A stretch of 64,000 bases of DNA from a virus. A model generated the notes under the pieces. The model was given only the letters and a program-made list of their open reading frames with translations, ran no database searches and was not told the origin of the DNA. The position numbers and the translations under genes were made by a program. Positions 7,577 to 48,318 of the stretch are shown in pieces; the first letter of the stretch is position 1, and every line of letters starts with the position of its first letter. Where the stretch lies: IMG/VR virus record IMGVR_UViG_3300036795_000250, positions 1 through 64,000 of that record, one strand, 5' to 3'.

Positions 7577-7585
7577 GCCGATAGT
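7577..7585 (+). promoter_or_regulatory. Putative late promoter -10 GCCGATAGT (protease/scaffold)
   Basis: Intergenic, 32 nt before ATG 7618; recurring motif. Confidence 0.7.
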
Positions 7586-7617
7586 AGTGGCGTCGCTGAT
7601 TGCACTGGAGGCTGGAA

Positions 7618-8769
7618 ATGGATCCCGAGGTCATCATTGTCCCAAGCCGGGAACCCGACTTCGTGTTCCTGTCGCGAACGAAACAGGGACGGCTATTCCG
7701 TAAGCACATTCTGACCAAGGGCGAGCTGATTCACCCCACCACTGGCGCGAAGCTCACGATCGATGACGCCTTCGTTGCCACGATGAAGGCCAATTTCGAT
7801 GCTGGCGTCTGTGACCATGTCCAGGTCCCGTTGGCAGACAAAGACAACTCGCACGATGAACGACCAGACCGCAACGTCGGCGAGGTCATCGACCTGCAAG
7901 AAGAAGGCGGCAAGATCTACGCTGTCATCGACGCTCGCAAGCACGCGGACGACTTCGGCAAGACTCTCCTCGGGGCTAGCGCATTCATTCACTTGAATTA
8001 CAAGGACACTAAAACCGGGGAGCGTGTAGGTCCAACTCTCTTACACACTGCCGTCACAAACCGGCCTTACATTACTGGCCTTGAAGACTTCCGCGAGATC
8101 GTCGCAGCCAGCGCCGATAGTGTGGGTGAAGCTGAAGCGGTCCTGTTCACCGAAGTTCCGACGGCGCCAGCTTCAGTTCCTGATACGGGACAACCCGAAC
8201 CGGTGAGCGACCCTACGAGGACGGCGCAGAACATGCTTACGAAGGACGAGCTGCTTGCAGCGTTGAAAGATCAGCACGGCGTGGACGTCGTCGCGCTTCA
8301 GGCTCAGGCCGACGCGGGCAAGACGGCCTCCGACGTCGCCACCGAACTGACCGCCTCGCTGTCGGCGAAGCTGACCGAGGCCGGCGTAATCAAGCTGGCT
8401 GGCGGTAACGAGGACACCATCACCACCGAGGACGTCATCGGCGCGGTCACCGAGCTCGCCTCGACCAACCTCGCCCTGACCGGCCGGCTGGACACGCTGG
8501 AGAAGCGTGACGCGGAGTCTGTTGTGGACGGCTTCGTTCGCGAAGGCCGGATCCTGCCGGTACAGCGGGACACCTACGTGGAACTGCGTCTGAGCAACCC
8601 CAGCATGTTCGAACGCATGGTCCCTGCGGAGGCCATCGTCAAGATGGACACCGAGGCCGGTGTCACGCCGCCCGAAGACGAGAAGCACAAGAAGAACATC
8701 GACGAGGAGATCGCTCGTCTCACCGCTCCCAGCGGTTCCAATGCCCACATGTTCAAGGTCCAGAGCTGA
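7618..8769 (+). CDS. Mu gpI-like capsid maturation protease with C-terminal scaffold
   Basis: GGAGG RBS; GPTLLHTAVTNRPYI motif; helical C-terminal half; position before decoration and capsid genes. Confidence 0.82.
   Translation: MDPEVIIVPSREPDFVFLSRTKQGRLFRKHILTKGELIHPTTGAKLTIDDAFVATMKANFDAGVCDHVQVPLADKDNSHDERPDRNVGEVIDLQEEGGKIYAVIDARKHADDFGKTLLGASAFIHLNYKDTKTGERVGPTLLHTAVTNRPYITGLEDFREIVAASADSVGEAEAVLFTEVPTAPASVPDTGQPEPVSDPTRTAQNMLTKDELLAALKDQHGVDVVALQAQADAGKTASDVATELTASLSAKLTEAGVIKLAGGNEDTITTEDVIGAVTELASTNLALTGRLDTLEKRDAESVVDGFVREGRILPVQRDTYVELRLSNPSMFERMVPAEAIVKMDTEAGVTPPEDEKHKKNIDEEIARLTAPSGSNAHMFKVQS
8113..8121 (+). promoter_or_regulatory. Internal GCCGATAGT upstream of likely scaffold start (ATG 8233)
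   Basis: Exact motif in the protease/scaffold linker. Confidence 0.5.
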
Positions 8770-8795
8770 TTCGGGACACAAGGAAGGGCTGAACG

Positions 8796-9233
8796 ATGAC
8801 TAATCCTACTCCTTCGTTCCCGAAGATCCCGGTTCCGACCAACTCGGGAGTAATCAAGCAGTTCGGTACTGGCGGAGGCCCTGTTGCCGCACCGCTGGAC
8901 AACGAGCTTCAGTACAGCGCGCACGCCTTTACGCAGAAAGGCGTTACCGTGGCCGGTGGCCAGGGCATTCTGCCGATGGGGTGTGTGCTGGGTCAGAAGA
9001 CGGCCGACAAGAAGTTCTACGTCTACGTCACCGGCCACTCTGACGGCACCCAGACCGCACGCGGCATCCTCCGCAACGCTATCGACACCGGAGCCGCCGG
9101 CTCGCCTGACCAGCAAGCGAACATCGTGATTCGCGGGATCCTCAAGCTCGCTCTCGTATCGGGCGCGGATTCTGGTGCGATCACTACGCTTGCCGCTCGT
9201 ACCGACTCGGTGCTGGGCACCTTCACCTTCTGA
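8796..9233 (+). CDS. Head decoration protein (lambda gpD-like)
   Basis: GVTVAGGQGILPMGCVLG...SDGTQTARGIL; between scaffold and gpE-type capsid. Confidence 0.8.
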   Translation: MTNPTPSFPKIPVPTNSGVIKQFGTGGGPVAAPLDNELQYSAHAFTQKGVTVAGGQGILPMGCVLGQKTADKKFYVYVTGHSDGTQTARGILRNAIDTGAAGSPDQQANIVIRGILKLALVSGADSGAITTLAARTDSVLGTFTF

Positions 9234-9244
9234 GTAACAGGCTT

Positions 9245-9277
9245 CGCCCGGTCACTAAGGACTCTAGTGACCGGGCG
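9245..9277 (+). terminator. Intrinsic terminator
   Basis: 13-bp stem CGCCCGGTCACTA/TAGTGACCGGGCG followed by TTGTTGT. Confidence 0.8.
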
Positions 9278-9457
9278 TTGTTGTCTCTTGGGCATTAATA
9301 TCGCTCAGTCGCGTGTCTATTCATTGTTCGTTTCCGTGAACCGTTTCTGGTTATGTCCGCGAGGGTTCTGCTACATTGACCACTCCCGCCGCCCCTCAGC
9401 CGCTGCCTTCCTTGGTGCTACCCCGCTGCGCGGCACGTGTCACTCACGGAGCTAACC

Positions 9458-10027
9458 ATGAGGTTCTTTTACGACCTTGAGTTTTGTGAAGACGGTTGGT
9501 CTATCGAGCCAATCTCTATCGGCATTGTCAGTGAAGCCGGTGATGAGTATTACGCGGTCTTCGATGACGTCCCGATCATCCAGGTCTACGCTAATGACTG
9601 GCTCGTCGAGCACGTCATGCCCTACATCCCGACCACGCACGCGACTCATGCCGTCGTGTGGCCAGCGGTGAAGCTGGATCCGTTGCACCCCGACGTCAAG
9701 AAGCGCACCACCGTTCGCGCCGAGATCGAGGAATTCCTGTTGAACCCGGTGGGTGGCCGGGGCGAAGAGGACATCGAACTGTGGGCGGACTGTGGCGCCT
9801 ACGACCATGTCGCTCTCATGCAACTGTGGGGAACCATGGTCGACAAACCTGCAAAGCTCCCTTATTTTACGCATGATCTCATGCAGGAATGGCATCGGCT
9901 AGGCAAGCCGGAGTTGCCACAGCAAGCCGAGAACGAACATCACGCGCTATACGATGCGCGCCATGACCGAGACGTCTGGCATTTCCTCGATGAGTACGCC
10001 CATCTGAGTTATAGCAATCAGCCCTGA
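9458..10027 (+). CDS. DEDDh 3'-5' exoribonuclease (Rv2179c/RNase AS-like, DUF5051)
   Basis: YDLEF, ISIGIV, ELWA..GAYDHVAL.QLWG, HHALYDARH. Confidence 0.88.
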   Translation: MRFFYDLEFCEDGWSIEPISIGIVSEAGDEYYAVFDDVPIIQVYANDWLVEHVMPYIPTTHATHAVVWPAVKLDPLHPDVKKRTTVRAEIEEFLLNPVGGRGEEDIELWADCGAYDHVALMQLWGTMVDKPAKLPYFTHDLMQEWHRLGKPELPQQAENEHHALYDARHDRDVWHFLDEYAHLSYSNQP

Positions 10028-10045
10028 CTTGCGAGGAGTCTTGTT

Positions 10046-10261: not shown

Positions 10262-10465
10262 GCAGCCCTTGCACTATAAAAGCCTATCTGAGCCCCTTCG
10301 GGTTCGGCTCACTGAGGTCGATACATGTAACTGAGTGGAATTCTTAGACATTCCGCAAGGCCAACCAAGTGATCCCTGTGGCGGATGGTGCAGGCCGGGC
10401 TCCCTTATACGGAGTCGCTGACGAAGTGTTCACCAGCCAACCGAGCTTTCAAGGGAGCGGCGGCA

Positions 10466-11476
10466 ATGCCTGACATCAGCCTCCTCGAACCGATGGTCCT
10501 GCGCGGGGTCGTGGAAAAATTCACCACTCCCGAAAACCTCGTCCTGCTCAACTCGGTGCCGCGCTCCCCGTGGCCCTTCCCGAGCGTGACGTGGGACGTC
10601 ATCAAGGGTTCGCGGATGGTCGCGAAGCCCAACGTGCCCAACTCTGAAGCGCACATCGTGCCTCGGCTGGGCCGCAGCCAGCAGTCCGCCGCCTTCGTTT
10701 ACCTGCGGGAAAAGAAGGTGTTCGAGCCGACCACGCTGCACTGGCTCCGCACTCCCGGCGAGATCGCGGCCACCAACGCGGAGAAGGCTGTGCTACGGGA
10801 GGTCAACGACCTCAACCAGCGCTTCGACAACTTCGCTGAATACTGCCTGTGGCAGGCGCTGACCGGGACCATGGTCTTCGACTACCCGGACGTGCAGGCC
10901 AACGTCTCCTACCAGTTCGCCTCCAGCCACACCCCGACGCCGGCCGTGGGTTGGGACACTGCGACTCCGCAGTCCATTGTGGCTGACGTGCGGGCCTGGA
11001 AGCGCATCGTCGCTCGCGAAGGCCGGGTGCCGATCAAGCAGGCATACGCCACCGAGTTCACGCTGGCCTACATTTTCGACAGTTTCGCCCGCACCGGGGT
11101 CGCGAACACGTTCTTCGGCGGCACGTTGTTGAGTGACCGTATGAAGGACCAGTACTACTCGACCGGTATCCTGCCGGGCTTCATGGGCATTGACTGGGCT
11201 CCGGTCGAGCAGGTTTACGAGGACGACAACCAGAACCTGACTCTGTTTGTCCCGGACAACGCCTTGTTCATGGGGAACTACACGGACAACCGTCCGATCG
11301 AGATGATGGAAGGTCCGACCGCCGACGACGAAGCGCCTGACCAGTTCACCGGCAAGTTCGCTAAGTCTTGGAAGGACCACGACCCGTCGGCTCGACAGTA
11401 TCTCCTGGAGTGGAACCTGTTCCCCATCATCACCAGGCCGGAGCAGATGATCTACGTGGCCAATGTGACCTCATAA
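10466..11476 (+). CDS. Major capsid protein (lambda gpE family)
   Basis: GGGAG RBS, MPDISLL; EYCLWQALTG, DPSARQYLLEWNLFPII; follows decoration gene. Confidence 0.9.
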   Translation: MPDISLLEPMVLRGVVEKFTTPENLVLLNSVPRSPWPFPSVTWDVIKGSRMVAKPNVPNSEAHIVPRLGRSQQSAAFVYLREKKVFEPTTLHWLRTPGEIAATNAEKAVLREVNDLNQRFDNFAEYCLWQALTGTMVFDYPDVQANVSYQFASSHTPTPAVGWDTATPQSIVADVRAWKRIVAREGRVPIKQAYATEFTLAYIFDSFARTGVANTFFGGTLLSDRMKDQYYSTGILPGFMGIDWAPVEQVYEDDNQNLTLFVPDNALFMGNYTDNRPIEMMEGPTADDEAPDQFTGKFAKSWKDHDPSARQYLLEWNLFPIITRPEQMIYVANVTS

Positions 11477-11540
11477 GCACGTCCAAGGCTGTCACGACGC
11501 GGCTCTATGAACGAGAGCGCAGTCTGCTCAGCGCCACGTG

Positions 11541-11586
11541 CGAGAAGCCTCTGAATGAGTTCTCATGGACTCGCAGAGGCTTCTCG
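11541..11586 (+). terminator. Hairpin terminator after capsid gene
   Basis: CGAGAAGCCTCTG / CAGAGGCTTCTCG. Confidence 0.75.
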
Positions 11587-11644
11587 TGTCTCTAACGGCA
11601 TGTTCGCTGTAGCGCCCTCGATGTAAGGGCTGTCGGGCTGTTCC

Positions 11645-11653
11645 GCCGATAGT
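11645..11653 (+). promoter_or_regulatory. Putative late promoter -10 GCCGATAGT
   Basis: Just after terminator, 39 nt before ATG 11693. Confidence 0.7.
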
Positions 11654-11692
11654 GCCTCGTGACAGATCTCCACCAGAGAGAGGCTTGTAGCC

Positions 11693-12334
11693 ATGGGCGC
11701 TGGGCAACCGAAACGGCTGATTGATCCTACCGAAGCGTTCGAGGACGAACCGACCGCGCCTGATCTCGCTGCTGACGATGAGTCCGGCGCCGGCACGGGC
11801 GGATCCGATCCGTGGGCCTCGCTCCGCAAGCCAGGCGCTCCCGCCCGACCGGCGCCGGACTCCGACCTGACCGCAGACCAGCTCCGCATTCGAGAGCTGG
11901 AGGATCGACTGGCCAAATCGGAGGGTCAGAAGGACCCGGAGCCGCAGCTGGTCGCGGCCGATCCGGGAAGCGATCAGAACATCCTCATCCACTTCCTCGA
12001 AGACGGCTTTACCGCGCTGGGCCAGGTGTGGATGCGCGGCCAGGAACTGGAGTTCACTCCTGGCTCGCCCGCCTACAACGACACGATCGACCGCGAGGGC
12101 AAGTCGTGGCTGGACTACCGGGACCGTGAGTTCGATCAGGTCGACAAGTGGGGCAAGATCATGTTCCGCAAGGGTCCCTGGCCTGGTAAGAGCTTCAAGG
12201 ATGCCACGTTCGTCGCGCTGAAGTCCTTATCTGGTGCGGGCACGGTACCGGTGCCGACCGAAGACGAGCTGACGGCCGCTGAGCAGCGCGAGCGTTCGCG
12301 GCGGCGGGCGGCGCCCACCTTCCCGAAGGCGTGA
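11693..12334 (+). CDS. Hypothetical virion-module protein
   Basis: GAGG RBS; position after capsid. Confidence 0.75.
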   Translation: MGAGQPKRLIDPTEAFEDEPTAPDLAADDESGAGTGGSDPWASLRKPGAPARPAPDSDLTADQLRIRELEDRLAKSEGQKDPEPQLVAADPGSDQNILIHFLEDGFTALGQVWMRGQELEFTPGSPAYNDTIDREGKSWLDYRDREFDQVDKWGKIMFRKGPWPGKSFKDATFVALKSLSGAGTVPVPTEDELTAAEQRERSRRRAAPTFPKA

Positions 12335-12341
12335 GGATGCG

Positions 12342-12911: not shown

Positions 12912-13001
12912 GCTTGTGTCTAGCAGCCGTGCACATCTACGACCTGTATATGAACACGTCTAGTGGGAAGGTTGCGACCACCTCGGTCTCTCGATCTTGA
13001 G

Positions 13002-13010
13002 GCCGATAGT
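13002..13010 (+). promoter_or_regulatory. Putative late promoter -10 GCCGATAGT
   Basis: Intergenic, 43 nt before ATG 13054. Confidence 0.7.
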
Positions 13011-13053
13011 AGTGGGTGAGTCAGGCACTGTTGCTCAAGGGTGGAGCGTGTTC

Positions 13054-13650
13054 ATGGAGACTATGCTCGGGTTTGTGGAGCCTCGCGAGGACCTCCATTG
13101 GTCTTCGACTTCCTTAGTGGAGAAGTTTTCTCCCACTCAGGTGGCCTACGCGACAGCCAAGCTGGGCCACAACCCCTCTCGCGATGAGCTTGTGATGCTG
13201 TGTGGCGCGCCAGAAGAGGGTGTGCATGAGGACCTGACGAGCAACCTGCTCACCACGGCCGGTTTGACCAGGCTTACTAACCTGTTGACTGGCGGCGGGG
13301 CTCAGGCTGCCAGTGCGACGGCGGCTCGATTGGGCGTTGGTAACTCGGCAACGACAGCGCTGGTCGCTGACACCGACTTGAACGCGGCCAGTGGTGCTGG
13401 CAACCGTCAGTTCTACGTCATGGACGCGACGTATCCCACTGTAGCTGCTGGTGTGTTGACAGTAAGGTCGACGTTCGCCACCGGGGACGCCAACTTTGTC
13501 TGGAACGAGTGGGGCATTGACATCGGTACTCCGACGGTAGCCAATGGCACGACTGTGAATGCGTGCTTACTGAACCACAAGATCGCATCGTTGGGCACGA
13601 AGGCCAGTGGCAGCGCGTGGGCTCTGACGGCAACTATCACCCTGAGCTGA
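13054..13650 (+). CDS. Virion structural protein (collar/fibre-type)
   Basis: NLLTTAG, LGVGN..T...ADTDL, F..GDANF.WNEWG. Confidence 0.7.
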   Translation: METMLGFVEPREDLHWSSTSLVEKFSPTQVAYATAKLGHNPSRDELVMLCGAPEEGVHEDLTSNLLTTAGLTRLTNLLTGGGAQAASATAARLGVGNSATTALVADTDLNAASGAGNRQFYVMDATYPTVAAGVLTVRSTFATGDANFVWNEWGIDIGTPTVANGTTVNACLLNHKIASLGTKASGSAWALTATITLS

Positions 13651-13678: not shown

Positions 13679-15148
13679 GTGAGTTACACACCTAACCCAA
13701 CGTGGGAAGACGGCTCCGCTGGCGGCACGCCATTTGAAGCCGCCCCATTCAACCATATCGAAGCGGGCATCCTCGATGCCTCAAACCGACTCGACTCACT
13801 ATATATCTCAAACTTCAGCGTCGCCGCGCAGTACCTGAAGATCGGCCCCACGCTATATTCATTTTCCGCAGTGGGGGGCGGCAGCAGTTATGCCGTGATC
13901 GACAAGACCTCCACTCCCAACGATGCTAGTGTCTACTTCCGCACTACCGGCATCGGACGTGGCGAGGTCGGGCTCGCTGCTGACGATGACATGCACTTCA
14001 AGGTTGTCACCGGATCGGTAGCTGGTTCGGAAACGTTCGTTGACGGCCTGATTATCAAGAATGCTGCACCGAACACTGGCAAGGTCTGGGCCCCAGTCGG
14101 TTTCGGTGTAGGTACGGTTCCTGCCGTCCCCCTCCATATCGCTGGCAGCAGCACCAGTGGCCGCGTCGCTGCCAAGGTAGAGAACACCAACGTCACCGCG
14201 AGCACCAGTGCCGGCTCCCAACTGGAGTTCAAAGGAAATAGCGCTCCGGTCGACTGGGTACTGGGCACCGACTACGGAGCGAACGGCGGGAACAACTACT
14301 TCCTCCAGGACGGCAACGGCGGCCTGCGCCTCTTTGTCGACGGCAATGGTCGCATCGTCATTGGCGACTACACGGCTGGAGCCGCAACCAATAACTCTCT
14401 GGATGTCGTCGGCTCTATCCGCACCCGAGGTACGAACTACAGCCTCAACCCGCTGAACTTCTGTGGGCACCTGACGGCGCCAGGTGCTCCCACCACCGGC
14501 ACCTACGCTGTTCACGATGTGGTCATGGACAGCATTGGCATCTGGTATATCTGCACGGGGGCCGGGACCCCGGGAACATGGGCTCGGTCCGCAGGCGATC
14601 CCAACGCTACCAAGGCCGCTTCTATGGGCCTCGTGGGCATGACCGAAGACCTGGCCCTGGTGCCCTCCCAGAGCCCGGTGACTGCCGGGCGCCTGTTCGT
14701 TTATCCGTTCGTGGCCGGCTTATCTGCGACTGTGTATTACGCCATTGCTGCCTATGCTAGCGCCACGTCGGGCAATGTGAACACTGGCTCCTTCATTGGT
14801 ATCTACAACGCCGCGGGGACGACGCTGTTGGGAGCAACCGCCGATCTCGCGTCTCAGCTTACTACCGTCGGTGGCGCCCGTGTCATTGGCACGATGGGAA
14901 CGCCATTCGCACTAACGGCCGGGGTCGCGTATCAAGCAGCATTGCTCAACAACTACACCACAACTGGACCTCAATGGATGTGCACCCGGAACTTTGGCAC
15001 GAACTGGGGTAGCGGCACCGGCATCATTCCCCGTGTTCAGGTCAGCTCCGGAACCATGACGACCATGCCCGCCAGCCTGGCGTCGCTTGGATTAGCAGCA
15101 TCTGGGACCAACCAGCTTGTTGCTATCGGCTTTGGTAAAGGGCCGTAA
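13679..15148 (+). CDS. Fibre/spike-like virion protein
   Basis: G/T/A-rich beta-type sequence, GAPTTGTY..WYICT.AGTPGTW; N-terminal ~40 aa shared with next gene. Confidence 0.7.
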   Translation: MSYTPNPTWEDGSAGGTPFEAAPFNHIEAGILDASNRLDSLYISNFSVAAQYLKIGPTLYSFSAVGGGSSYAVIDKTSTPNDASVYFRTTGIGRGEVGLAADDDMHFKVVTGSVAGSETFVDGLIIKNAAPNTGKVWAPVGFGVGTVPAVPLHIAGSSTSGRVAAKVENTNVTASTSAGSQLEFKGNSAPVDWVLGTDYGANGGNNYFLQDGNGGLRLFVDGNGRIVIGDYTAGAATNNSLDVVGSIRTRGTNYSLNPLNFCGHLTAPGAPTTGTYAVHDVVMDSIGIWYICTGAGTPGTWARSAGDPNATKAASMGLVGMTEDLALVPSQSPVTAGRLFVYPFVAGLSATVYYAIAAYASATSGNVNTGSFIGIYNAAGTTLLGATADLASQLTTVGGARVIGTMGTPFALTAGVAYQAALLNNYTTTGPQWMCTRNFGTNWGSGTGIIPRVQVSSGTMTTMPASLASLGLAASGTNQLVAIGFGKGP

Positions 15149-15169
15149 CCAGAGTCTAGGGGCGCAGCA

Positions 15170-16543
15170 ATGAGTTACACACCGAATCCAACCTGGGCCG
15201 ACGGGCCCGGGGGCGGCACACCTGCCGAAGCCGTTCCGTTCAACCACATCGAGGCCGGTATCCTGGACGCCTCGAACCGTCTGGACGCTCAAGTCGTACC
15301 GGCACAACTCAACCGGGGTCGAGCCACCGTTGTTGCCACCTACGCCAGCGGCCACGGGTGGACGGCGGCGGGCGGCTGGAGCACTTCGAACGTCAACGAC
15401 ACCTCAGATGGTCGACTGTCCGGGCAGATGCTTACTGGCACGACCCCGGGCAACACAGGTACCTTTCCCACCTTCACGAAGCTCAGTGCTCCAGCTATTA
15501 ACCTGACCGGTCAGTGTTTGCGCGTGTGGGTTAAGGTCGATGCTCCTACCAACGTCGCCGCAATTACCCTTCGCGCAGCTGCCTCGGGAGGCATTGCCGC
15601 CAGCAACTACGTGAGCTGGACGGCGCTGGCGAGCTCGGGCGGCGTCTACCGCACCAACGGCATCATGATCCCGCCCAACACATGGACCGAGCTGTCGTTC
15701 TCCCTAGGTTCGGCCTTCAGCGCGGGCACACCGAATATCACCGCGATCACCGACTATCGGTGGATTGCTCAGGACAACGGGACCGCCTTCACCGTCAACT
15801 TCGGTGGCATCACAGCCTATCCAGCACTGTCTGCTCGCTATCCTAACGGTGTCGCGTGCTTCGGATTCGATGATTGCTACGCAGGCCAGTTCAGTCAGGC
15901 CATGAACCTCTTCAGTAGCTTCGGATACACAGCGACGCTGTTTCCCATCATCGACCAAATCGGCGCGGGAGGTTCCTACACTCTAACGCAGCTAGGTCAG
16001 ATGGCTAACATTGGTTGGGAAATAGCGCCGCACGCATATACCTTAGCTAACCACTCTGGCTGGAACTCTCTTAGCTTGACGCAGGCGTCGGCGGATGTGC
16101 TGGCCTCAAAACAGTGGATCGCTACTCACGGCTTTGGACTCAGTGGTGTATTTGCCTACCCACTCGGCGGGTTCAACGGCGGCTTCTCTGGTGCAGTGGC
16201 ACCACTCTGTCAGGTAGCCAGGACGATTGACTCGACCATGTTGACCGAATCCCTGCCCGTCGGGAATCCGCTCCAGTTGCGCAGCCCTGCGGGAATCGGT
16301 GGGTCGGGCGGCATTGGCGTGACCACCTACACGACTGCCACGACTGGTGTTATTGCCCTGGCCAAAGCTGCCGGGGCCCTAGTCCCCATGACGTTCCACG
16401 ATATATCCAGTGGCACGTCCGGTAACATCAACCAGTGCTCGATTGCCGACCTGACGACACTGGTTACTGCGATCAACACTGCCGGAATGGCCGTTGCGAC
16501 CTACGGTGAGGTGCTTCGCTACGCCATGCTGGGCATCTTCTAA
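15170..16543 (+). CDS. Virion-module polysaccharide deacetylase (NodB/CE4 domain)
   Basis: FGFDD, GWEIAPH..NH, FAYPLG, MTFHDI; fibre-type N-terminus. Confidence 0.82.
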   Translation: MSYTPNPTWADGPGGGTPAEAVPFNHIEAGILDASNRLDAQVVPAQLNRGRATVVATYASGHGWTAAGGWSTSNVNDTSDGRLSGQMLTGTTPGNTGTFPTFTKLSAPAINLTGQCLRVWVKVDAPTNVAAITLRAAASGGIAASNYVSWTALASSGGVYRTNGIMIPPNTWTELSFSLGSAFSAGTPNITAITDYRWIAQDNGTAFTVNFGGITAYPALSARYPNGVACFGFDDCYAGQFSQAMNLFSSFGYTATLFPIIDQIGAGGSYTLTQLGQMANIGWEIAPHAYTLANHSGWNSLSLTQASADVLASKQWIATHGFGLSGVFAYPLGGFNGGFSGAVAPLCQVARTIDSTMLTESLPVGNPLQLRSPAGIGGSGGIGVTTYTTATTGVIALAKAAGALVPMTFHDISSGTSGNINQCSIADLTTLVTAINTAGMAVATYGEVLRYAMLGIF

Positions 16544-20553: not shown

Positions 20554-20733
20554 TTGCCAGCTCCGCCGATATTCTTTCAGAACCTGACGCTCATGCTGGA
20601 AAGAGCGACCAGCCCAGCTGAGTGCGACGACTTGCTGGACTTGTGGTGGGATGCGCGCACACGAGCCTCCCAATGGGACGCTGATCAGTGGGGCTTAGAG
20701 AGCACTGACTCCGATGAGAACGGGACAACATAG
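20554..20733 (+). CDS. 59-aa acidic hypothetical protein (not in ORF track)
   Basis: AGGAGG 7 nt before TTG; fills the gap before the glycosyltransferase. Confidence 0.55.
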   Translation: MPAPPIFFQNLTLMLERATSPAECDDLLDLWWDARTRASQWDADQWGLESTDSDENGTT

Positions 20734-21817: not shown

Positions 21818-22075
21818 GTGCAAAGGGTGGCTATCGAGGTAGAGATCCGTTGCCCTTCGGACTTGCGCAGGCTCTTCATGAAGCTTCAAATCTCTGGAGA
21901 GAAACCCAAATATGTCGACGGCAACCTCTTGGAGATAGCGTGCTCGGATTGTAAGCGCGAGCTACGCAAGCAGGGTGTTGAGATAGTTCGCGTGCTGCAT
22001 TACTTCAACTTCGTTGGTGAGTTGATTACGACAGAAGTAGTGCGTGGGGAGCCAGCCGATAGTAAAGGCGACTGA
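21818..22075 (+). CDS. Small putative Zn-binding protein
   Basis: EIRCP...EIACSDC...H. Confidence 0.6.
   Translation: MQRVAIEVEIRCPSDLRRLFMKLQISGEKPKYVDGNLLEIACSDCKRELRKQGVEIVRVLHYFNFVGELITTEVVRGEPADSKGD
22055..22063 (+). promoter_or_regulatory. Putative late promoter -10 GCCGATAGT (tail tube)
   Basis: 37 nt before ATG 22101. Confidence 0.7.
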
Positions 22076-23617: not shown

Positions 23618-23654
23618 GTCGATTTTTACAGTGGTATCAGGAGAGTGAAATCGG

Positions 23655-37479: not shown

Positions 37480-38466
37480 GTGGAGGAGCCCTACGCAGTC
37501 TTGCAGGGCTATTGGAGCTGGCGACAATTCATTCAACCGGTGCCGCGTTATCTGACCGTGCTGCTGGGGATGGTGCGTTCATGGGTGATTGACGGCTCCG
37601 AGCCGTCTCGTCAAGCCATCAGCTCGTTCCTGGATGATAAGCGTGCCCTCATCGAGGGCGAGTTGCGCTCCCACGACAATGCGCCCGACCTGATTCCGTT
37701 GCTCGATGCATGTTTGGCGCTGGACGCGATGCATCGTCCGGAGCGCCCGGAGGTTCCGGTCCGAGCGATGCGGCCTGAGCTGGCCGCGTTGGTGCGGCAG
37801 TACGAGCGGTTGCCGAAGGCTGTGGCCTGGAAAGTCTGGCGCACCGCGCCCACCCAACTGGATTTGGATGAGCTGACCGGCATCGCCAATGCCGCCCTGG
37901 TCGCCTCGGCCGCCCGCTGGCCGGCGCACTGCGCGAAGCACGGCTACAGCCCGACCAGTGTCGAATATTTTCAGTACGTCGCCACCCTGCGCATCCGTGG
38001 TGCGGTCTATGACGCGCTGCGCTCCGAGGACTGGGTCACCCGCAAGATCCGCCGGAACGCCAAGGCATTGCTGGCTGCTGGTCAGGAGACCGGGGCCTCA
38101 CTGCACGAACTGTCACAACGAACCGGGTTGTCGCGCGATGACGTGCAGGAGACCTTGCTTGCCATGACGCAGGCGCCAGTCTCCTTAGAGCTCCAGGAGG
38201 TGGAGTTCAGTGCTCCCGAACAGGCTATTGAGTCGCAGGTTGCCGCGAAACAGATCCTGAACGTGTGTGCCGACGCTATTCAGACACTGTCCGAGGAGAA
38301 GCAGAATGTGCTGGTGCTCAAGTACTACTGCGACATGTCCTTGGATGAGATAGCGGAGCAGCTGGAGCTGCCGAAATCTCGAATCTCCGCTCTCCACATC
38401 GAGGCTGTACTCGCAGTGCACGCTGCGATGCGCGCCTACGTCGATGATGTGTCCGAGGCGAGCTAG
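37480..38466 (+). CDS. FliA/WhiG-family (sigma28) RNA polymerase sigma factor with N-terminal extension
   Basis: RIRGAVYDALRSEDW (FliA/WhiG RIRGA..DELR..DW); region 4 L...YY..MSL.EIA..L....SRIS.LH. Confidence 0.9.
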   Translation: MEEPYAVLQGYWSWRQFIQPVPRYLTVLLGMVRSWVIDGSEPSRQAISSFLDDKRALIEGELRSHDNAPDLIPLLDACLALDAMHRPERPEVPVRAMRPELAALVRQYERLPKAVAWKVWRTAPTQLDLDELTGIANAALVASAARWPAHCAKHGYSPTSVEYFQYVATLRIRGAVYDALRSEDWVTRKIRRNAKALLAAGQETGASLHELSQRTGLSRDDVQETLLAMTQAPVSLELQEVEFSAPEQAIESQVAAKQILNVCADAIQTLSEEKQNVLVLKYYCDMSLDEIAEQLELPKSRISALHIEAVLAVHAAMRAYVDDVSEAS

Positions 38467-38891: not shown

Positions 38892-39265
38892 TGGCCGGAC
38901 TCGATATGTCCAAAGGCATCCCGCGTGGACGTCCGACGCGGAAGATGCCGACCCCGTTTCAGCGGAAGAGTATTGCGGTCGGACCGCGCGCCGATGAGCA
39001 GCGCCGGGTATGGCAATGGATCCCGCCGTCCGCGCTGACCGAAGGTGACGTCGTGCCAGGCATGGGGCTGGTACACCGGGTGCGGGAAGTGGTGGTCGCA
39101 CCCGGCTTTGAGAGCGGCATGGCGCCGATCGACATCGTCGATGCGATCCTGTGGGCGGTGCGCATCGACGCGGGAGTACCCGACTCGCAGGAGTACGAAG
39201 TGGACGCCTCGACGAACCTCTGGGCGTTCAGCTGCGAGCGAGAAGGGACGAGTGCTGGTGGGTAG
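38891..39265 (+). CDS. Hypothetical protein
   Basis: AAGGAG RBS; TGATG coupling. Confidence 0.7.
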   Translation: MAGLDMSKGIPRGRPTRKMPTPFQRKSIAVGPRADEQRRVWQWIPPSALTEGDVVPGMGLVHRVREVVVAPGFESGMAPIDIVDAILWAVRIDAGVPDSQEYEVDASTNLWAFSCEREGTSAGG

Positions 39266-42934: not shown

Positions 42935-44614
42935 TCAATCCTCGGCGATCAGCGCATTGAGTTCAGCTAGCGTGTGAATCACGGCCGGAGGCCCCGCCGC
43001 GTCCAGGAGCAATTCCCGAGCCAACCCCGAGAGCGTGATCTCGCCAGGGTCGTCCTCGGCGCTGAACCGGGTGGTGCCACCAACCGAGGTGCGGACCCCG
43101 TGGCCGGGGCCGGGGCCGCCTTGTGGCGCTCCGGTGCTCCTGCTCTGCCGGACAGGTCGCCCCGGGCGAGGTGCGCCGCTGGGCCCGAGCGAGCCACCCG
43201 CAGGCGTGCCGCCGGGCGCTGTCGCGGGTTCCGGTGCCGGGGCAGGCGCGATGTTCGCCTCAGCCTTGGCAAGCTTGGCGGACTCTGCCATCCGTTCTTC
43301 GATGGTCTCGTAGTCGATCTCCAGCCCCAGCTCTTCGGCGACTTGTTTCTCCAGCTCGTGCATGAACTCCGGAGTGCAGCTCTGGAACTCTGGGGAAACG
43401 ACCGCCAGAGTGTTGAACATGTTGGTGGCGATGCCCTTTTGCTCGGCCGTGAGCGGACCAAATCGAAATTTAGGGTAGAGACCACTATCGAAGTTCCAGT
43501 CAATGAACCGGGGGATTATCTTATCGTTGATGAAGCTCTCCACCTCGGCCATGATGGTGTCGAGCATCAGAATGAACATGGCGTCAGACTGCTTGCCGAA
43601 GTCGACCAGCGTCGTCTCGCTCGCCCCGCCACCCTGAGCGTCATCGAAGAACGGCGCGAGAATCGACTTGCTCATCTGGCTGTTGTGGTGATTGATGAAG
43701 GAGAGGAAGTCGAACTGAGTACCCTCCTTCAGCAACTCGACCGTGTACCCGTCCGGGACGGCCAGGTACTGAGCGAAGCCGAGGTCACTCAATGCCTTCG
43801 TGAAGTTTGCTCGCTCCTCCGGAGTCGGCGAGGGGGGTAGGTGACCGACACGGGTACCCGTTGCTGCTCGCTGCGCAGCCAGGTGCGCGACAAAATACAG
43901 ACGGACCTTCTTGTCCCAGTGATAGAAGGCTGCTTCGAAGTAGCTCTTGCCGTAGAACAACTGCTCTTCTTCTTGGCAGGCATGGTAAACGGCTGAGTCC
44001 GGAGGGATCTCTACGTCGATGTACCGGCCCATGAACATGACACGTTGCCGAAATCCCCAGAAGTTTCCGTTCTTGTCCAGCAAGAAGTAGATGGTTTGCG
44101 GGGGGCGCCAGGCCATCTTTTTGAGGGTCCACTTGCCTTTGAGTGGACCCTTCTTCGGTGACCAGTACACTAGTTCGAAGGGCGCGAAGCCATCGAACAC
44201 GGAATTAAGTACCTGTGAGATCACCCGAGTCCACGGTGTCATCATGCCGCCTTGTGATGATGGCATCGTAAACATCTGCTCCACGAAGGTAGCCTCGTCT
44301 TGACCGCCCTTCTGACCGGCCGCAGGAACGAACGTGCAGGTCGACAAGGCAGCGCGGATCGGCAGCACGATCAAGCGGAACAGCGCGCGAGCCTGACCGT
44401 CGGTCCGTCGCATCGAGACAAGCTGCTCGGGAGTGACCTGATCGTCTCGGTAGACTTCCCAGGCGTTACGGTAGGGAGTGACAAAAGGCTGCCACATCCC
44501 GACACCGACTTCGATGTCACCCTTCGGCGATTTCGGAGTGACGCCGTTCAGGATCGTCTTCGACGAATCGACTAACCCCGCCAAAGCAATGACGTCGTTA
44601 TCGTTGTCTGCCAT
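42935..44614 (-). CDS. Portal protein (DUF935/Mu gp29-like)
   Basis: DGFAPFELVY, FINHHNSQMSKSIL, IN.KIIPRFIDWNF...YPKF; follows terL. Confidence 0.88.
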   Translation of the reverse strand: MADNDNDVIALAGLVDSSKTILNGVTPKSPKGDIEVGVGMWQPFVTPYRNAWEVYRDDQVTPEQLVSMRRTDGQARALFRLIVLPIRAALSTCTFVPAAGQKGGQDEATFVEQMFTMPSSQGGMMTPWTRVISQVLNSVFDGFAPFELVYWSPKKGPLKGKWTLKKMAWRPPQTIYFLLDKNGNFWGFRQRVMFMGRYIDVEIPPDSAVYHACQEEEQLFYGKSYFEAAFYHWDKKVRLYFVAHLAAQRAATGTRVGHLPPSPTPEERANFTKALSDLGFAQYLAVPDGYTVELLKEGTQFDFLSFINHHNSQMSKSILAPFFDDAQGGGASETTLVDFGKQSDAMFILMLDTIMAEVESFINDKIIPRFIDWNFDSGLYPKFRFGPLTAEQKGIATNMFNTLAVVSPEFQSCTPEFMHELEKQVAEELGLEIDYETIEERMAESAKLAKAEANIAPAPAPEPATAPGGTPAGGSLGPSGAPRPGRPVRQSRSTGAPQGGPGPGHGVRTSVGGTTRFSAEDDPGEITLSGLARELLLDAAGPPAVIHTLAELNALIAED

Positions 44615-44620
44615 AGCTTT

Positions 44621-44629
44621 ACTATCGGT
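44621..44629 (-). promoter_or_regulatory. Putative late promoter -10 ACCGATAGT; probable leaderless portal mRNA
   Basis: 6 nt before portal ATG; no RBS. Confidence 0.65.
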
Positions 44630-44671
44630 GGCGAGTCAGCGATCGTTGTGCAACCAGGACCGGCTGTGTCG

Positions 44672-46516
44672 TCAGGACGGTCCGAGGAACTGTTGCCACC
44701 GCATGTGCTCGCTGCCTTGCAGTGGCGAGCCACCCTCCATGTCCCGAGGGACGCCGGCCAAGGATCCGATCGCGGGCCCGACCTCGAAGCTGGCGTTGCC
44801 GAAGAACGCTTCCCGCTGCTGCGGATCTTCCTCGCCCCCGACCTCGACCGCTCCCTGGGCCGCACACGCGAACGCGTCGGCGAGATCCTTGCTGCTACTC
44901 GCCGGGTGATCGATCTTGCCGTTGACCAGCTTGGTCAGCGAGAGCAACTCCTCGCGCAGCAAGGTGTTCTTAGGCGTGGCCAGCCTGCCTTCGTACATGA
45001 TGTCGCGCAGGTTGCGATAGGGCTCGATGTTCGCGTCGGTGCTGACCTTCTTCGAGTCGATGCCACGGGACCGCAGGATCTGCATGCTGTCCTCGGACTG
45101 GAAACCGTCGTAGGTCATTTGCTTGATAGTGAAGCCACGCTGCACCAACTCGAACGCGAGTTGCCGAGCCCATCGAATCTGGATCTCACGGGCAGGCTTC
45201 AGGGAGATGTCCGCCTCGAACGCCAGGACGAAGTCCACCTTGATGACGGGCCGGCGGTCCAGGAACGGGACATCTTCGCCTTCCGGCCCGGCCAGGATCT
45301 TCTCGTACGTTTCGTATTTCTGCACGTGCGCCAGCGCGATGCCAGCCTTGTCTCCGCTGATGGCCATGTCCGCGTGCATGGCGTACACCGCGCCAACAAT
45401 AGGCTTGAAGTCAGGCCGGTAAGCATAGAAGGGAACCCATGCCTTGTGTTCTCGCTTGTAGCTGACCTTGACTGGTGGCGGGACGTCGAGGAAGGTCGCA
45501 TCGACCGCGTCGTGGTTGCGAAAATACGGGTTGACCGCACGAGACGGCTTGCACTCGTACTTGCTCCGTGCCATCACGGGATCGGTCTCATAGTCATCGG
45601 CGAACATGTCCTTGCCGGTGACGCGCGGATTGACCTCCCAGGTGGCGAGTGGGCCGGACAGGAAGTGCCGGGACGCCTCTCCCTTCTTCTTGAGGTCCTC
45701 GCGAGCGGTGCGGGTGAGCTGTTGGATCATGGAGCCGAGGTACCGGGGGTAGGAGATGCGGACGTTCTTGAAGACCTGGGGAAACCGGGTGGATCCGCTG
45801 GTGCGGATCATGTCGAGAATGTTCTCTACGGACTTGGTCGGTTCCCGCGCCGACCGGATGCGCCGGACGACGATCTCACCCTTGCTCTTGAACGCGTCCA
45901 CCTCGTCAGCGATCCCGAGCATGAGGTTGAGACCCTCCTGGGTCTCCGCGTCGCTGTGGCCCGAGATGCACTCAATGTTCTTGGCGTAGGAGATGGTGTT
46001 GATATGCGGATCGCAGCGGTCCTTGAACCAGCCCGACTTCACCGCGCGAGTGATCGGCGTAAAGAATGCTTGCTGGGCCTGAGTGGACGAGGACGCGACA
46101 TTCAGCATGTGGATCGTGTCTTGTTCTGGTATGCCGTAGTACTCCTGAGGGCTAATCAAACACATCAGTAAATACGCGATGCGCATCGAGGCAATGCGGC
46201 AGATATGGTCCTTACCAGAACCTTTACCCCACTGAAGGGTCACGAAGTTTACCATCCTCGTGATATCCGTCCAGTAGGTATCGTTGAACTCTTTAGCCAT
46301 CAACGGATACAGCTCGGGATAGTAGATCCGCTCGGTGTAGCGGACAGCTTCATACTGCACGTCAGACAGCGGCGGGTTACCCAGGTACTTCTTGTCCCGC
46401 ACGAAGATGTCCAGCGGTACTGGTTCTTCGGAGAAGATACGACTGAGGTCAGTGCCGCCCGCCGACGATGTGATCAGGCCGGCGGAGGCACGCATCATGT
46501 CACTGAGAGACGCCAC
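44672..46516 (-). CDS. terL: Terminase large subunit
   Basis: GKGSGKD, IADEVD, HADM...GD, TYDGFQS, KIDHP...SKDLADA. Confidence 0.93.
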   Translation of the reverse strand: MASLSDMMRASAGLITSSAGGTDLSRIFSEEPVPLDIFVRDKKYLGNPPLSDVQYEAVRYTERIYYPELYPLMAKEFNDTYWTDITRMVNFVTLQWGKGSGKDHICRIASMRIAYLLMCLISPQEYYGIPEQDTIHMLNVASSSTQAQQAFFTPITRAVKSGWFKDRCDPHINTISYAKNIECISGHSDAETQEGLNLMLGIADEVDAFKSKGEIVVRRIRSAREPTKSVENILDMIRTSGSTRFPQVFKNVRISYPRYLGSMIQQLTRTAREDLKKKGEASRHFLSGPLATWEVNPRVTGKDMFADDYETDPVMARSKYECKPSRAVNPYFRNHDAVDATFLDVPPPVKVSYKREHKAWVPFYAYRPDFKPIVGAVYAMHADMAISGDKAGIALAHVQKYETYEKILAGPEGEDVPFLDRRPVIKVDFVLAFEADISLKPAREIQIRWARQLAFELVQRGFTIKQMTYDGFQSEDSMQILRSRGIDSKKVSTDANIEPYRNLRDIMYEGRLATPKNTLLREELLSLTKLVNGKIDHPASSSKDLADAFACAAQGAVEVGGEEDPQQREAFFGNASFEVGPAIGSLAGVPRDMEGGSPLQGSEHMRWQQFLGPS

Positions 46517-46615
46517 ATTCGGTCCTCTCCGGAACCGGTCAGTAGAGGAAAATCCCCACCAGTCCCGGAGGACGGTGGGGAGCTAGGGACGGCTGGACTG
46601 CGCGCTGTTCGCGAG

Positions 46616-46894
46616 TCAGGAGTCTTCCGAAATCTCGATTCCGATCTTTTTGGCCGCAGCCTTGATCCGGCCCTTGACCTCAGACAGCGTCACGCCGTTG
46701 AGTGGATACTCAGCAGCATTTTTCGGCACGTTGATGTACGCCCATGCCGCTCGAATGCGCTTCTCGTTGTTGAGCGGGTACTTGCCGTTCTTGGGGTCAG
46801 CGTAGACAACCGCACCGTAGGGCTTGGTGCTGGCAGGCTTGGTCTCAGTAGCGGCAGACAGCCGCAGGAACTTGGCTGTATAGGTTCCGGGCAT
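46616..46894 (-). CDS. DUF6582-like protein
   Basis: YADP...KYPL.....IRAAWAYIN. Confidence 0.75.
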   Translation of the reverse strand: MPGTYTAKFLRLSAATETKPASTKPYGAVVYADPKNGKYPLNNEKRIRAAWAYINVPKNAAEYPLNGVTLSEVKGRIKAAAKKIGIEISEDS

Positions 46895-46895
46895 C

Positions 46896-47816
46896 TTATT
46901 TACCCTGCTTCTTGTGCATGCTGATGACCGCGTTACCGGCGGCTTTGCGGGTTGCCATTGGAGCCGTCTTCGCCCCGGAGCGGTGGACGCCGATGTGCTT
47001 GCCGCCGGCCGCTGCCTTGACCATGCCGACTCGACCCTGGCCCGGCATCATCACGGCGCCCGCGCTGGTCAGACTGCCGCCGTCGAGGTCATCGCCGTCA
47101 GCGTCCCCATCGCTGTCCGAACTGCTGTCCGTGCTGCTGTTTCCGCTGAGCGCCAAGAGCCTCCCCAGGCTGCGGCTCGACGCCGGGGCCGACATAGCGG
47201 CCGGCGCAGAGCCCTCATCCGGGTCAGGCACGCCCATCGCCTGCAACAGCTCGTCGACCGTCGAACTGGCGGCGTAGACCAGCGCGATGGCCTGCTGAAC
47301 TTCAGGCGGCAGAGACGTCAGAGAGACGCCGTGCAGCAGATCGCATGCCTGATCCAGACAGGCATCCACCGCAGCGGCCAGACTCCTCGGATCGTCGTCC
47401 GCGTCAGGGTACGCAGCCTCGCCTTGGCCAGTGGACAACTGGAGGACCTTGCTCAGCGAACTGCTCATCGTCGCCGCTACCTTTCCATGAGGAGCTGACG
47501 ATGTGTGCGCTTCAGCTCGTTTGGCTTCCCACTCTGCCCATGCTTTGGCTGCCGCCGCTTGTACGTCAGGGTGTACGTGACCCTTGCCGTTAGGAGTGCG
47601 GCCGTCCTTCCAGTCCTCGACGATGCCGACTGCTTTGTGGATGGCCTGTGATTCGCCGAGGCCGCCTCGGGCGAGTGCTTTGGATACGTTTTGAATGTAG
47701 GCGGGCAGCATCAGACCTTTGTGGTGCCACAGACCGGGTCCATCCGGCGTGCCCCACGGGTTGGGCTGCGTCGATGCCCGGGGAGTGTCCAGCGTCAGCG
47801 CGAGACGGTTGTCCAT
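46896..47816 (-). CDS. Hypothetical packaging-operon protein
   Basis: LPAYIQ.V..AL...AI..AVG.V..W; acidic low-complexity middle. Confidence 0.7.
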   Translation of the reverse strand: MDNRLALTLDTPRASTQPNPWGTPDGPGLWHHKGLMLPAYIQNVSKALARGGLGESQAIHKAVGIVEDWKDGRTPNGKGHVHPDVQAAAAKAWAEWEAKRAEAHTSSAPHGKVAATMSSSLSKVLQLSTGQGEAAYPDADDDPRSLAAAVDACLDQACDLLHGVSLTSLPPEVQQAIALVYAASSTVDELLQAMGVPDPDEGSAPAAMSAPASSRSLGRLLALSGNSSTDSSSDSDGDADGDDLDGGSLTSAGAVMMPGQGRVGMVKAAAGGKHIGVHRSGAKTAPMATRKAAGNAVISMHKKQGK

Positions 47817-48274
47817 CACAGACCGGCCGCCTGGAACGCCTCACTGAACTTGATCATCAGGTCCTGCCGCGTGGCAGCATCGCTGACCCCGCCCAGCGTG
47901 GCCAGGACCAGGTCCCGCACTTCGGCCAGGATGGCGTCGCGGTTGCCTTTGTCAGCACGCTCCAGCAGGGAGTTGAACTCCCTCGTCATGCTCAACCAAA
48001 ACGTGTTGTAGTCCTTCTGGACAGTCGCGTGAGCGAACCCATCAGCGGAGCCAACCGGCTGGCCTTCCCGCATGCGCAGTACCACGTAGTTGAATGCGAT
48101 GCGCTCGATCAGTAGCTGTTGCACCGTATTCATGGGAAGGTACTGTGCTTCGCGACGCATGCGATGCACGATGACCTCGTAAAGCTGACGCAGCCCTGGA
48201 TCGTCACACACTTCGTCAGGAAGGTTGAATGCTGCGTCGAGAGCATCCAGAGGGCCGAGATCGTCGCTACGCAT
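47816..48274 (-). CDS. Putative terminase small subunit
   Basis: AGGAGG RBS; helical 152 aa; first gene of the terL operon (positional call only). Confidence 0.5.
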   Translation of the reverse strand: MRSDDLGPLDALDAAFNLPDEVCDDPGLRQLYEVIVHRMRREAQYLPMNTVQQLLIERIAFNYVVLRMREGQPVGSADGFAHATVQKDYNTFWLSMTREFNSLLERADKGNRDAILAEVRDLVLATLGGVSDAATRQDLMIKFSEAFQAAGL

Positions 48275-48309
48275 GGCGTCCTCCTGGCTGGCTTACCGTG
48301 CTGCCTGTA

Positions 48310-48318
48310 ACTATCGGC
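48310..48318 (-). promoter_or_regulatory. Putative late promoter -10 GCCGATAGT (packaging operon)
   Basis: 35 nt before ATG 48274, just downstream of a terminator. Confidence 0.7.

Follow-up and report, generated by a model that had tools for sequence, protein, structure and literature searches.

Phage-encoded late sigma factors are textbook biology for T4 and SPO1, and the late promoters of T4 consist of a -10-like element only. In SPO1, phage sigmas are used for both the middle and the late genes (PMC13401047). Here, we analyzed a 64,000-nucleotide (nt) stretch of viral DNA (the window), comprising the first 64 kb of IMG/VR record IMGVR_UViG_3300036795_000250 (129,193 bp; CheckV completeness, ~96%), and found a 9-nt box, GCCGATAGT, in front of virion and packaging genes, together with a gene (37480-38466) for a sigma factor of the sigma-28 (FliA/WhiG) type. 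We propose that this sigma directs the host core RNA polymerase to the box, the same logic by which T4 gp55, or SPO1 gp34 with gp33, redirects the host core polymerase to late virion genes. Compared with those proteins, the sigma described here has full regions 2, 3, and 4 and falls in the sigma-28 branch, its presumed target is the -10 box of cellular sigma-28, and many of the late mRNAs are apparently leaderless.

The nearest described family is cellular sigma-28 (E. coli and P. aeruginosa FliA and B. subtilis SigD), with which the phage system shares the -10 sequence GCCGATA(A/G), the residues that read it, and the spacing from the -10 element to the start. The phage protein differs from these in carrying a region-2 insertion, in having lost the -35-reading glutamine, and, in its own clade, in an N-terminal extension of ~100 amino acids (aa); it is also phage encoded and appears to serve virion rather than flagellar genes. 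Actinobacterial WhiG (Streptomyces WhiG2 and Actinoplanes WhiG1) has in common with the phage system the likely host phylum and a -10 consensus with an invariant CGA, but WhiG promoters keep a -35 element at N16-17 and WhiG itself is controlled by RsiG and c-di-GMP. Bacillus phages carry sporulation-type sigmas that are likewise phage-borne homologs of developmental group-3 sigmas, and some of their GenBank records are named "RNA polymerase sigma 28 subunit," with weak similarity (E value, 1e-4 to 1e-3) to a member of the family described below. Such homologs are discussed as modulators of host dormancy in a survey of phage sigmas, the main text of which does not contain the terms "FliA," "WhiG," "Actinobacteria," or "flagell" (PMC9429907).

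The -10 element of the P. aeruginosa fliC promoter is reported as (-15)GCCGATAA(-8), with sigma-28 residue R80 reading -12G and R97 reading -15/-14 (PMC12784957). The reported actinobacterial WhiG consensus takes the forms T(A/C)AA-N16-GCCGATAA and CTCA-N16-17-GCCGAACT, and in its -10 element conservation is highest at the central CGA, whereas the final bases vary (PMC12871210). In a table of the E. coli FliA regulon, the flxA promoter ends in TGCCGATAGT, which contains an exact GCCGATAGT, the motAB -10 element is GCCGATATT, and those of ycgR and fliDST are ACCGATAA, of the ACCGATA type (PMC4203485). At seven sites in the phage we find GCCGATAG or ACCGATAG, words that are GCCGATAA-like and retain the invariant CGA. 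Judged by sequence, the phage box and its variants are normal sigma-28 -10 elements, because they match the fliC element, the WhiG consensus, and the flxA, motAB, ycgR, and fliDST elements.

Distribution and placement of the box

The window contains six exact copies of GCCGATAGT, at 7577, 8113, 11645, 13002, and 22055 on the + strand and at 48318-48310 on the - strand. In 100 dinucleotide shuffles of the window, the mean number of copies was 0.37 (standard deviation, 0.54; maximum, 2). The Markov-1 expectation for the entire record is 0.72 copies, and a scan of its remaining 65 kb found none. A variant, ACCGATAGT, was verified at 44629-44621 (- strand), ahead of the portal gene. These seven sites had been listed in an earlier note on this DNA, and all of them are present; the GC content of ~65% that the note assumed was too high, the measured value for the record being 61.7%.

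We re-called the genes independently by codon usage (the genome is 85% coding). Five of the six exact copies, and ACCGATAGT, are intergenic, in sense orientation, and 5' of virion or packaging genes, while the copy at 8113 lies in frame within the protease/scaffold gene. The boxes and the features around them are listed below, in part by reference to Microbacterium phage Magritte (133 kb), the closest deposited phage (terminase, 46% identity; capsid, 62% identity).

7577..7585, + strand: GCCGATAGT box, 32 nt ahead of the protease/scaffold ATG, with GGAGG between; predicted +1 at 7592
7618..8769, + strand: gene for a Mu-like prohead protease fused to a scaffold domain (Pfam Mu-like_Pro; 36% identity to Magritte gp19, "scaffolding protein")
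8113..8121, + strand: internal GCCGATAGT box in the protease-scaffold linker of 7618-8769, a proposed internal promoter; predicted +1 at 8128
8233, + strand: ATG, candidate start of a nested scaffold product, with GAGGA 11-15 nt 5'; aligned with a Met in Magritte
10317..10325, + strand: candidate weak box GTCGATACA, ahead of the capsid gene 10466-11476 and past a small hairpin
~11537..11590 (approximate), + strand: long hairpin 3' of the capsid gene and 5' of the 11645 box; fold of 11500-11644, -68.6 kcal/mol, z -5.03
11645..11653, + strand: GCCGATAGT box, 39 nt ahead of the ATG that opens the post-capsid unit (11693-12334 plus the genes after it); predicted +1 at 11660
13002..13010, + strand: GCCGATAGT box, 43 nt ahead of 13054-13650, with the head-fiber-like genes 13679-16543 next; predicted +1 at 13017
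20565..20573, + strand: candidate weak box GCCGATATT, 165 nt ahead of the glycosyltransferase gene 20738-21793
22055..22063, + strand: GCCGATAGT box, 37 nt ahead of the major tail protein gene 22101-22670; predicted +1 at 22070
42935..44614, - strand: portal gene (Pfam Portal_Mu)
44621..44629, - strand: ACCGATAGT box, with the portal ATG 7 nt past ACCGATAG; predicted +1 at 44614, the A of the ATG (leaderless)
44672..46516, - strand: large terminase gene (46% identity to the Magritte terminase; PHROG terminase family match)
48310..48318, - strand: GCCGATAGT box, 35 nt ahead of ATG 48274, with AGGAGG between; predicted +1 at 48303
48345..48377, - strand: intrinsic terminator, a 13-bp stem followed by TTTGTTGT; -43.4 kcal/mol, z -5.74

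On the fresh gene calls, start codons lie 32, 39, 43, 37, and 35 nt past the ends of the boxes at 7577, 11645, 13002, 22055, and 48318, respectively, in agreement with the 32-43 nt of the earlier note, and a Shine-Dalgarno sequence sits between box and start at each of these five sites. At the portal gene the gap is 6 nt when counted from the 9-mer and 7 nt from the 8-mer ACCGATAG, no Shine-Dalgarno sequence intervenes, and sigma-28 numbering puts the A of the ATG at +1. Two boxes had been said to follow terminators, and folding agrees: the hairpin at 48345-48377 (-), which has a T-run (z, -5.7), is 26 nt from the box of the packaging unit, and the other, at ~11537-11590 (+; z, -5.0), precedes the post-capsid unit. 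The packaging unit runs from 48274 to 44672 on the - strand, with three small genes followed by that for the large terminase. Flanking sequences beyond the 9-mer are not shared among the sites.

The virion and packaging modules have 18 unit heads, of which 6 have CCGATAG within 70 nt on their 5' side, compared with 0 of the 96 unit heads elsewhere (Fisher test, P = 7e-6), a test that is partly post hoc because we drew the borders of these modules from gene content. Enrichment ahead of late genes was a check that the earlier note had itself named, and a full scan of the record bears out its impression, gained by eye, that no box stands in front of the replication and integration genes. Matches to sigma-70-type promoters are not enriched in the late modules (3 versus 4.6 expected and 3 versus 3.1 expected).

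Three weaker variants had also been proposed, two of which we keep as candidates. For GTCGATACA, before the capsid gene, a relative from IMG/VR (G001; 100,988 bp; sigma 32% identical) and several other relatives carry a full CCGATA(G/A) ~110-120 nt 5' of the capsid start, and TCGATA is a normal box variant in Magritte. For GCCGATATT, before the glycosyltransferase gene, no counterpart was found in front of Magritte gp31. Both remain candidates and are not established. The third, GTCGATTTT before the tape-measure gene (23618..23626, +), was rejected: it lacks the CGATA core and is part of a terminator-like hairpin and T-run at 23607-23622.

Occurrences of GCCGATAA at 87400, 122553, and 123022 (+) were not counted, being antisense to adjacent genes, nor was one at 48617-48624 (+), which is 380 nt ahead of the next + strand gene. 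This last word lies in the divergent gap facing the packaging-unit box and is also within a weak hairpin.

Counterparts in related phages

No GCCGATAGT was found in a scan of Magritte, but CGATATCCCTG occurs there 10 times, always on the gene strand, compared with 0.044 copies expected. These boxes lie before gp9 (the head of the terminase unit; 5340), gp17, gp19 (18361), gp23 (21966), gp33 (29541), gp41, gp88, gp98, and gp232, with one more inside gp19 (18889). The annotated ATGs of gp19 and gp98 are exactly 7 nt past CGATAT, the same geometry as at the portal box of the window. Five of the seven sites in the window have positional counterparts in Magritte, namely, those at the packaging head, protease/scaffold gene, internal scaffold position, post-capsid unit, and major tail gene. 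Magritte gp33 ("major tail protein") is the ortholog of the product of 22101-22670 (49.7% identity), and the first gene of the packaging unit (start 48274) is the ortholog of gp9. Compared with Magritte, everything outside the head-tail-replication arm (40837-64000 and beyond) is inverted as one block, which accounts for the packaging genes being on the - strand in this phage; the 48318 and 44629 boxes changed orientation together with the genes that they precede.

In Magritte, the 5340 box falls inside the annotated start of gp9 (5332), and an in-frame ATG at 5353 is exactly 7 nt past CGATAT. The true start of gp9 is therefore probably 5353 rather than 5332, judging from this spacing.

In G001, CCGATA(G/T) is in sense orientation in seven of seven intergenic cases. 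Five boxes have a start codon 7-8 nt on, those of the terminase, portal, and protease/scaffold (74335) genes and of two others, and boxes are also found ahead of the capsid gene, ahead of the ortholog of the 13054 gene (8085-8864, with CCGATAG 36 nt 5'), and inside the scaffold gene. The flavor of the box varies by phage (GCCGATAGT here, CGATATCCCTG in Magritte, and cCCGATAG in G001), and orthologous boxes occur among phages whose proteins are only 27-62% identical.

The heads of phage Mu are built with nested scaffold genes, gpI/gpZ, in which protease and scaffold share one frame and a shorter C-terminal scaffold is made separately; this arrangement has a likeness in the protease/scaffold gene of the window. 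Here, however, an internal promoter (the 8113 box, with candidate ATG 8233) would yield the shorter product, and not internal translation initiation alone. The internal boxes of the three phages (8113 in the window, 18889 in Magritte, where it is a full CGATATCCCTG, and 74873 in G001) occupy the same alignment position in a poorly conserved linker. Among related loci, 41 of 69 have CGA[TA]A somewhere in a 135-nt span around this site.

For a wider group, a capsid profile identified 182 related viral contigs, from which the best 80 loci were taken, leaving 62 after dereplication (606 kb). In these 62 loci, we counted 121 copies of CCGATA[AGT] on the gene strand versus 35 on the opposite strand. 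The distance from this word to the next ATG is most often 7 nt (14 sites) or 8 nt (11 sites), with at most 6 sites at any other offset between 0 and 30 nt. An ATG or GTG lies at 7-8 nt in 36 of the 121 gene-strand sites, compared with 4 of the 35 on the opposite strand and with 3 of 21, 4 of 38, and 8 of 57 sites for three permuted control words. The start codons thus observed are of two classes, one 7-8 nt past the box without a Shine-Dalgarno sequence and the other 30-45 nt past it with one. As far as start-codon placement can tell, this division is what promoters of leaderless and leadered mRNAs would leave. Leaderless mRNAs are predicted because a box-to-ATG distance of 7-8 nt is the distance from the sigma-28 -10 element to the transcript start (-8 to +1).

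We also found the sigma gene, in one copy each, in 12 of 13 large related records, and in all 10 of those that are at least 90% complete. By its distribution, the sigma is a core gene of this phage group.

An element in the 5' leader of the capsid gene is conserved in the window (10330-10470), Magritte (L002, 19990-20125), and a third phage (L012, 17090-17226). It reads AGGCCA(A/G)(A/C)CA(A/T)GTG ... GCAGG(C/T)CGGGC ... GG(A/T)GTCGCTG in DNA that is otherwise unalignable, and RNAalifold, run on these three sequences only, suggests two small helices with some compensatory changes. A AGGCCAGCCA-like word also trails the capsid-proximal boxes of other relatives.

The phage sigma factor

The sigma gene lies in the replication module of the window.

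37480..38466, + strand: sigma factor, 328 aa, between genes for an SNF2 helicase and a DnaB helicase, as in Magritte

Magritte and this phage share this helicase-sigma-DnaB order. By its profile matches, the protein has a ~100-aa N-terminal extension ahead of a divergent core of the sigma-28 (FliA/WhiG) type, which occupies residues ~100-320. Its top NCBIfam match is TIGR02479 FliA_WhiG (101.8 bits over profile positions 1-223 of 224), while other models score far less (SigB/F/G, 26.8 bits; RpoD, 26.1 bits) and the WhiG equivalog gives 83.7 bits against a cutoff of 343. Regions 2, 3, and 4 are full length and regions 1.1 and 1.2 are lacking, and the protein is the only sigma-region-4 match over the cutoff in the 129-kb record. 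The best sequence match in the PDB is E. coli FliA (6pmi; E value, 2.6e-14), and further solved relatives are P. aeruginosa FliA, S. venezuelae WhiG, and Aquifex FliA. Foldseek ranks sigma-28 and WhiG first for an AlphaFold model built from eight sequences, with low TM-scores, and we take this ranking as weak support. The earlier note had called the protein a FliA/WhiG-family sigma and likened it to T4 gp55. The nearest family is as it said, but since the sigma misses the curated FliA/WhiG cutoff, it is a divergent phage-type branch rather than a plain captured WhiG; the likeness to gp55 is functional, and no sequence relationship to T4 gp55 or SPO1 gp34 was found.

The residues that read the -10 element are kept: R171, R173, D178, D184, R188, and R192 correspond to R80, R82, D87, D93, R97, and R101 of P. 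aeruginosa sigma-28. The equivalent of the -35 reader Q228 is Ala304, and region 2 has an insertion of 8 residues relative to cellular FliA. An alanine mutant of Q228 is reported to cripple P. aeruginosa sigma-28 (PMC12784957).

The seven close relatives of the sigma (P0002 to P0008) are 43-85% identical to it, and the sole member from JGI among them sits on a 1,680-bp contig. No contigs were matched in viral contigs searched with the sigma as a single query or in genome contigs searched with its alignment. A profile of the sigma and these relatives yielded 108 representatives of 50%-identity clusters at an E value of ≤1e-30, mostly of 225-250 aa. We aligned 105 of the family representatives (200-360 aa) with the 24 cellular FliA-like matches closest to the query. 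The equivalent of R80 is kept in 95 of the 105 family members, that of D87 in 101, and that of R97 in 100, and the position of Y76 is aromatic in 101. In contrast, the equivalent of Q228 is a glutamine in 14 of 105 family members versus 24 of 24 cellular proteins. The region-2 insertion is present in 103 of 105 (18 residues in 72 of them), spanning 17-25 residues versus 8-10 in the cellular proteins.

At the phage boxes, we found no -35 element of the form TAAA, T(A/C)AA, or CTCA 16-17 bp 5' of the -10 element; motifs at variable spacing were looked for by eye. The information content 5' of -16 is at most 0.9 bit for the 7 sites of the window and at most 0.7 bit for the 10 sites of Magritte, values that are small-sample noise. 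The view of the earlier note that the boxes share no -35 element is thus upheld by upstream columns at noise level and is matched by loss of the -35-reading glutamine. Promoters and protein agree in suggesting that -10 reading has been retained and canonical -35 reading lost, because the -10 readers are at least 90% conserved, Q228 is mostly gone, and the boxes are without a -35 element.

The first ~100 residues of the sigma (37480-37780) are confidently predicted to form a four-helix domain (pLDDT, ~75-90). This putative domain is common to the eight closest relatives and is not found in Magritte or G001; it has no Pfam match, and no listed fold match accounts for it. A FlgM-like partner was not recognized in a scan limited to the two downstream genes (38469-38891 and 38891-39265), neither of which has a Pfam match.

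When TIGR02479 was applied to viral sigmas, relatives scored 53.1-106.6 bits, and two other viral sigmas, L006 and L007, passed the cutoff, at 216.8 and 217.0 bits. An otherwise unrelated 144-kb record (G003; IMGVR_UViG_3300018481_000018) encodes a sigma over the FliA/WhiG cutoff (217 bits). It contains 12 copies of ATCCGAACAT, compared with 0.15 expected, and of its CCGAACAT sites, 21 in number, 17 fall between genes; the word is similar to GCCGAACT, the -10 element of actinobacterial WhiG1. To judge from these words, G003 may hold a second, independent phage sigma-28 regulon.

Proposed mechanism, alternatives, and significance

We consider it quite likely that GCCGATAGT serves as the -10 element (-15 to -7) in a class of promoters specific to the phage, which host core RNA polymerase carrying the phage sigma-28-type sigma reads through the extended -10 element only. 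In this mechanism, the sigma gene, which lies in the replication module and has no box, would presumably be read by the host holoenzyme. The sigma would then lead the core polymerase to the seven boxes, which would serve the packaging genes, the portal gene (leaderless), the protease/scaffold gene, a nested scaffold transcript, the post-capsid head genes, the fiber unit, and the major tail gene. Transcripts would start 8 nt past the G of GCCGATAG, and the extended -10 element would suffice for recognition, as the promoters are without a -35 element and the sigma is without the glutamine that reads one. A nested scaffold transcript from the internal promoter would raise scaffold output over that of protease, a twist on the nested genes of the Mu type. 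A sigma in the phage genome with its candidate promoters confined to virion and packaging genes is a pattern that recurs in Magritte and G001.

Several observations weigh against this proposal. We infer sigma-box binding, transcript starts, late timing, and sigma dependence from the DNA, and a search of sequencing runs found the phage sequence in one soil-metagenome DNA run and in no RNA run. The 101.8 bits of the sigma fall short of the TIGR02479 curated cutoff of 189.6; Pfam Sigma70_r4 passes, but r2 and r3 are under threshold; the structure model is of low confidence (pLDDT, 63.5); and the equivalent of Y76 is V167, a position that is aromatic in six of eight close relatives. The 105 family proteins were taken without genomic context, so that their phage origin is presumed. 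Only 5 of the 10 Magritte boxes are matched in this phage, and Magritte is without a separate portal box. In G001 the 7-mer is not enriched by itself (14 versus 10.1 expected), and the evidence from that phage is positional. The internal box overlaps conserved Ala-Asp codons (GCC GAT), so the protein may explain part of its conservation. In addition, the sigma-28 family offers no precedent for -10-only recognition, and the authors of the P. aeruginosa study call -35 recognition by sigma-28 essential (PMC12784957).

One alternative is that a host WhiG or FliA reads the sigma-28-type boxes, while the phage sigma does other work, such as reprogramming of host genes, or reads some promoters only. 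The box is identical to cellular sigma-28 -10 elements, and WhiG homologs are reported in many Actinomycetota, although Microbacterium is unmentioned in the main text of that report (PMC12871210). We think this unlikely, as the sigma belongs to the core genes of the group (12 of 13 large records), the conserved -35 element of cellular WhiG and FliA promoters (T(A/C)AA or CTCA) is missing here, and the flavor of the box is phage specific, as expected if each phage's own sigma sets it.

It is quite improbable, in our estimate, that the box is not a -10 element at all and is instead a site for another phage regulator (a late activator or repressor) or a signal for RNA processing or stability. An intergenic position and a strand bias would suit an RNA element, and the sigma-like protein of Magritte is annotated merely as a DNA binding protein. 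However, the two classes of start codon fit leaderless and leadered promoters and not activator or cleavage sites, and the core of the box coincides with the -10 element of the very family to which the phage-encoded sigma belongs.

We regard as highly improbable a third alternative, in which host SigA reads GATAGT as a weak TANNNT-like -10 element and these are ordinary host-type promoters. In this phage the box does supply an A at -11 and a T at -7, and leaderless genes with a -10 element at such a distance are common in Actinobacteria. However, all three phages have C at -13 and G at -12 without exception, with -12 never a T, position -7 in Magritte is a C, and the boxes are limited to virion and packaging genes. 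An origin by chance, or as a repeat that recombination has spread and that has no regulatory role, is scarcely credible: the one-mismatch variants are weakly enriched as a class (21 versus 11.6 expected, with 1 of 100 shuffles reaching 21), but no shuffle of 100 reaches six exact copies, the unconserved flanks show that the sites are not repeat copies, and counterparts occupy orthologous positions in phages with 27-62% protein identity.

Returning to promoters read by the phage sigma, we give about even weight to a broader picture, in which the sigma represents a large phage-specific branch of sigma-28 that has abandoned -35 recognition for the extended -10 element only and is core in a widespread clade of ~125-186-kb soil phages. 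In that picture, late genes would be largely leaderless, the internal promoter would set the protease-to-scaffold ratio, and the region-2 insertion or the N-terminal domain may replace the -35 contact.

The surrounding genome has a Mu-like head module, with the protease/scaffold protein, a lambda-D-type decoration protein, an E-type capsid, and a Mu-type portal. The window also encodes a 1,943-aa tape-measure open reading frame, the SNF2 helicase, the sigma, the DnaB helicase, and two tyrosine integrases. Other features near the main loci are as follows.

1366..1452: palindrome-rich divergent gap, beginning GAGTACTCATGTAC
3506..4735, - strand, and 55207..56499, + strand: tyrosine integrases
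5516..6319, + strand: Methyltransf_19 S-adenosylmethionine (SAM)-dependent methyltransferase gene, upstream of the head module
7021..7554, + strand: ImmA/IrrE-type M78 peptidase, just 5' of the protease/scaffold promoter
9458..10027, + strand: Rv2179c-like 3'-5' exoribonuclease gene, between the decoration and capsid genes

The integrases, the M78 peptidase, and the palindromic gap, taken by gene content, suggest a temperate lifestyle or an immunity switch. Outside the window, at 114000-122300 (-) of the record, at least nine copies of an ~60-nt intergenic repeat lie between small genes. The repeat consists of TGAC(C/A)(G/A)CTTGC(A/G)TGG, a GC-rich hairpin, TGTTGGTTGCCAGAC, and a ribosome-binding site, is distinct from the sigma-28 box, and may be an early-gene promoter, terminator, or processing element.

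Full-text literature searches, with supplementary files outside their scope, turned up neither such boxes nor a phage late sigma of the FliA/WhiG type. Automatic JGI names are already "FliA" for some family members, and the Magritte sigma, gp47, is annotated as "DNA binding protein." A sigma-28-derived late sigma with a regulon that can be read from sequence appears to be a hitherto undescribed route to the activation of phage late genes. If the proposal is true, it would account for late-gene control in a large group of big actinobacterial soil phages, of which Magritte is in culture, and would tie phage late transcription to leaderless translation. The sigma would be a naturally occurring group-3 sigma able to function without a -35 element and would inform the minimum needed for promoter recognition. 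Actinobacterial genetics would also gain a compact orthogonal pair of sigma and promoter, and a simple rule could guide the annotation of late operons and of true start codons.

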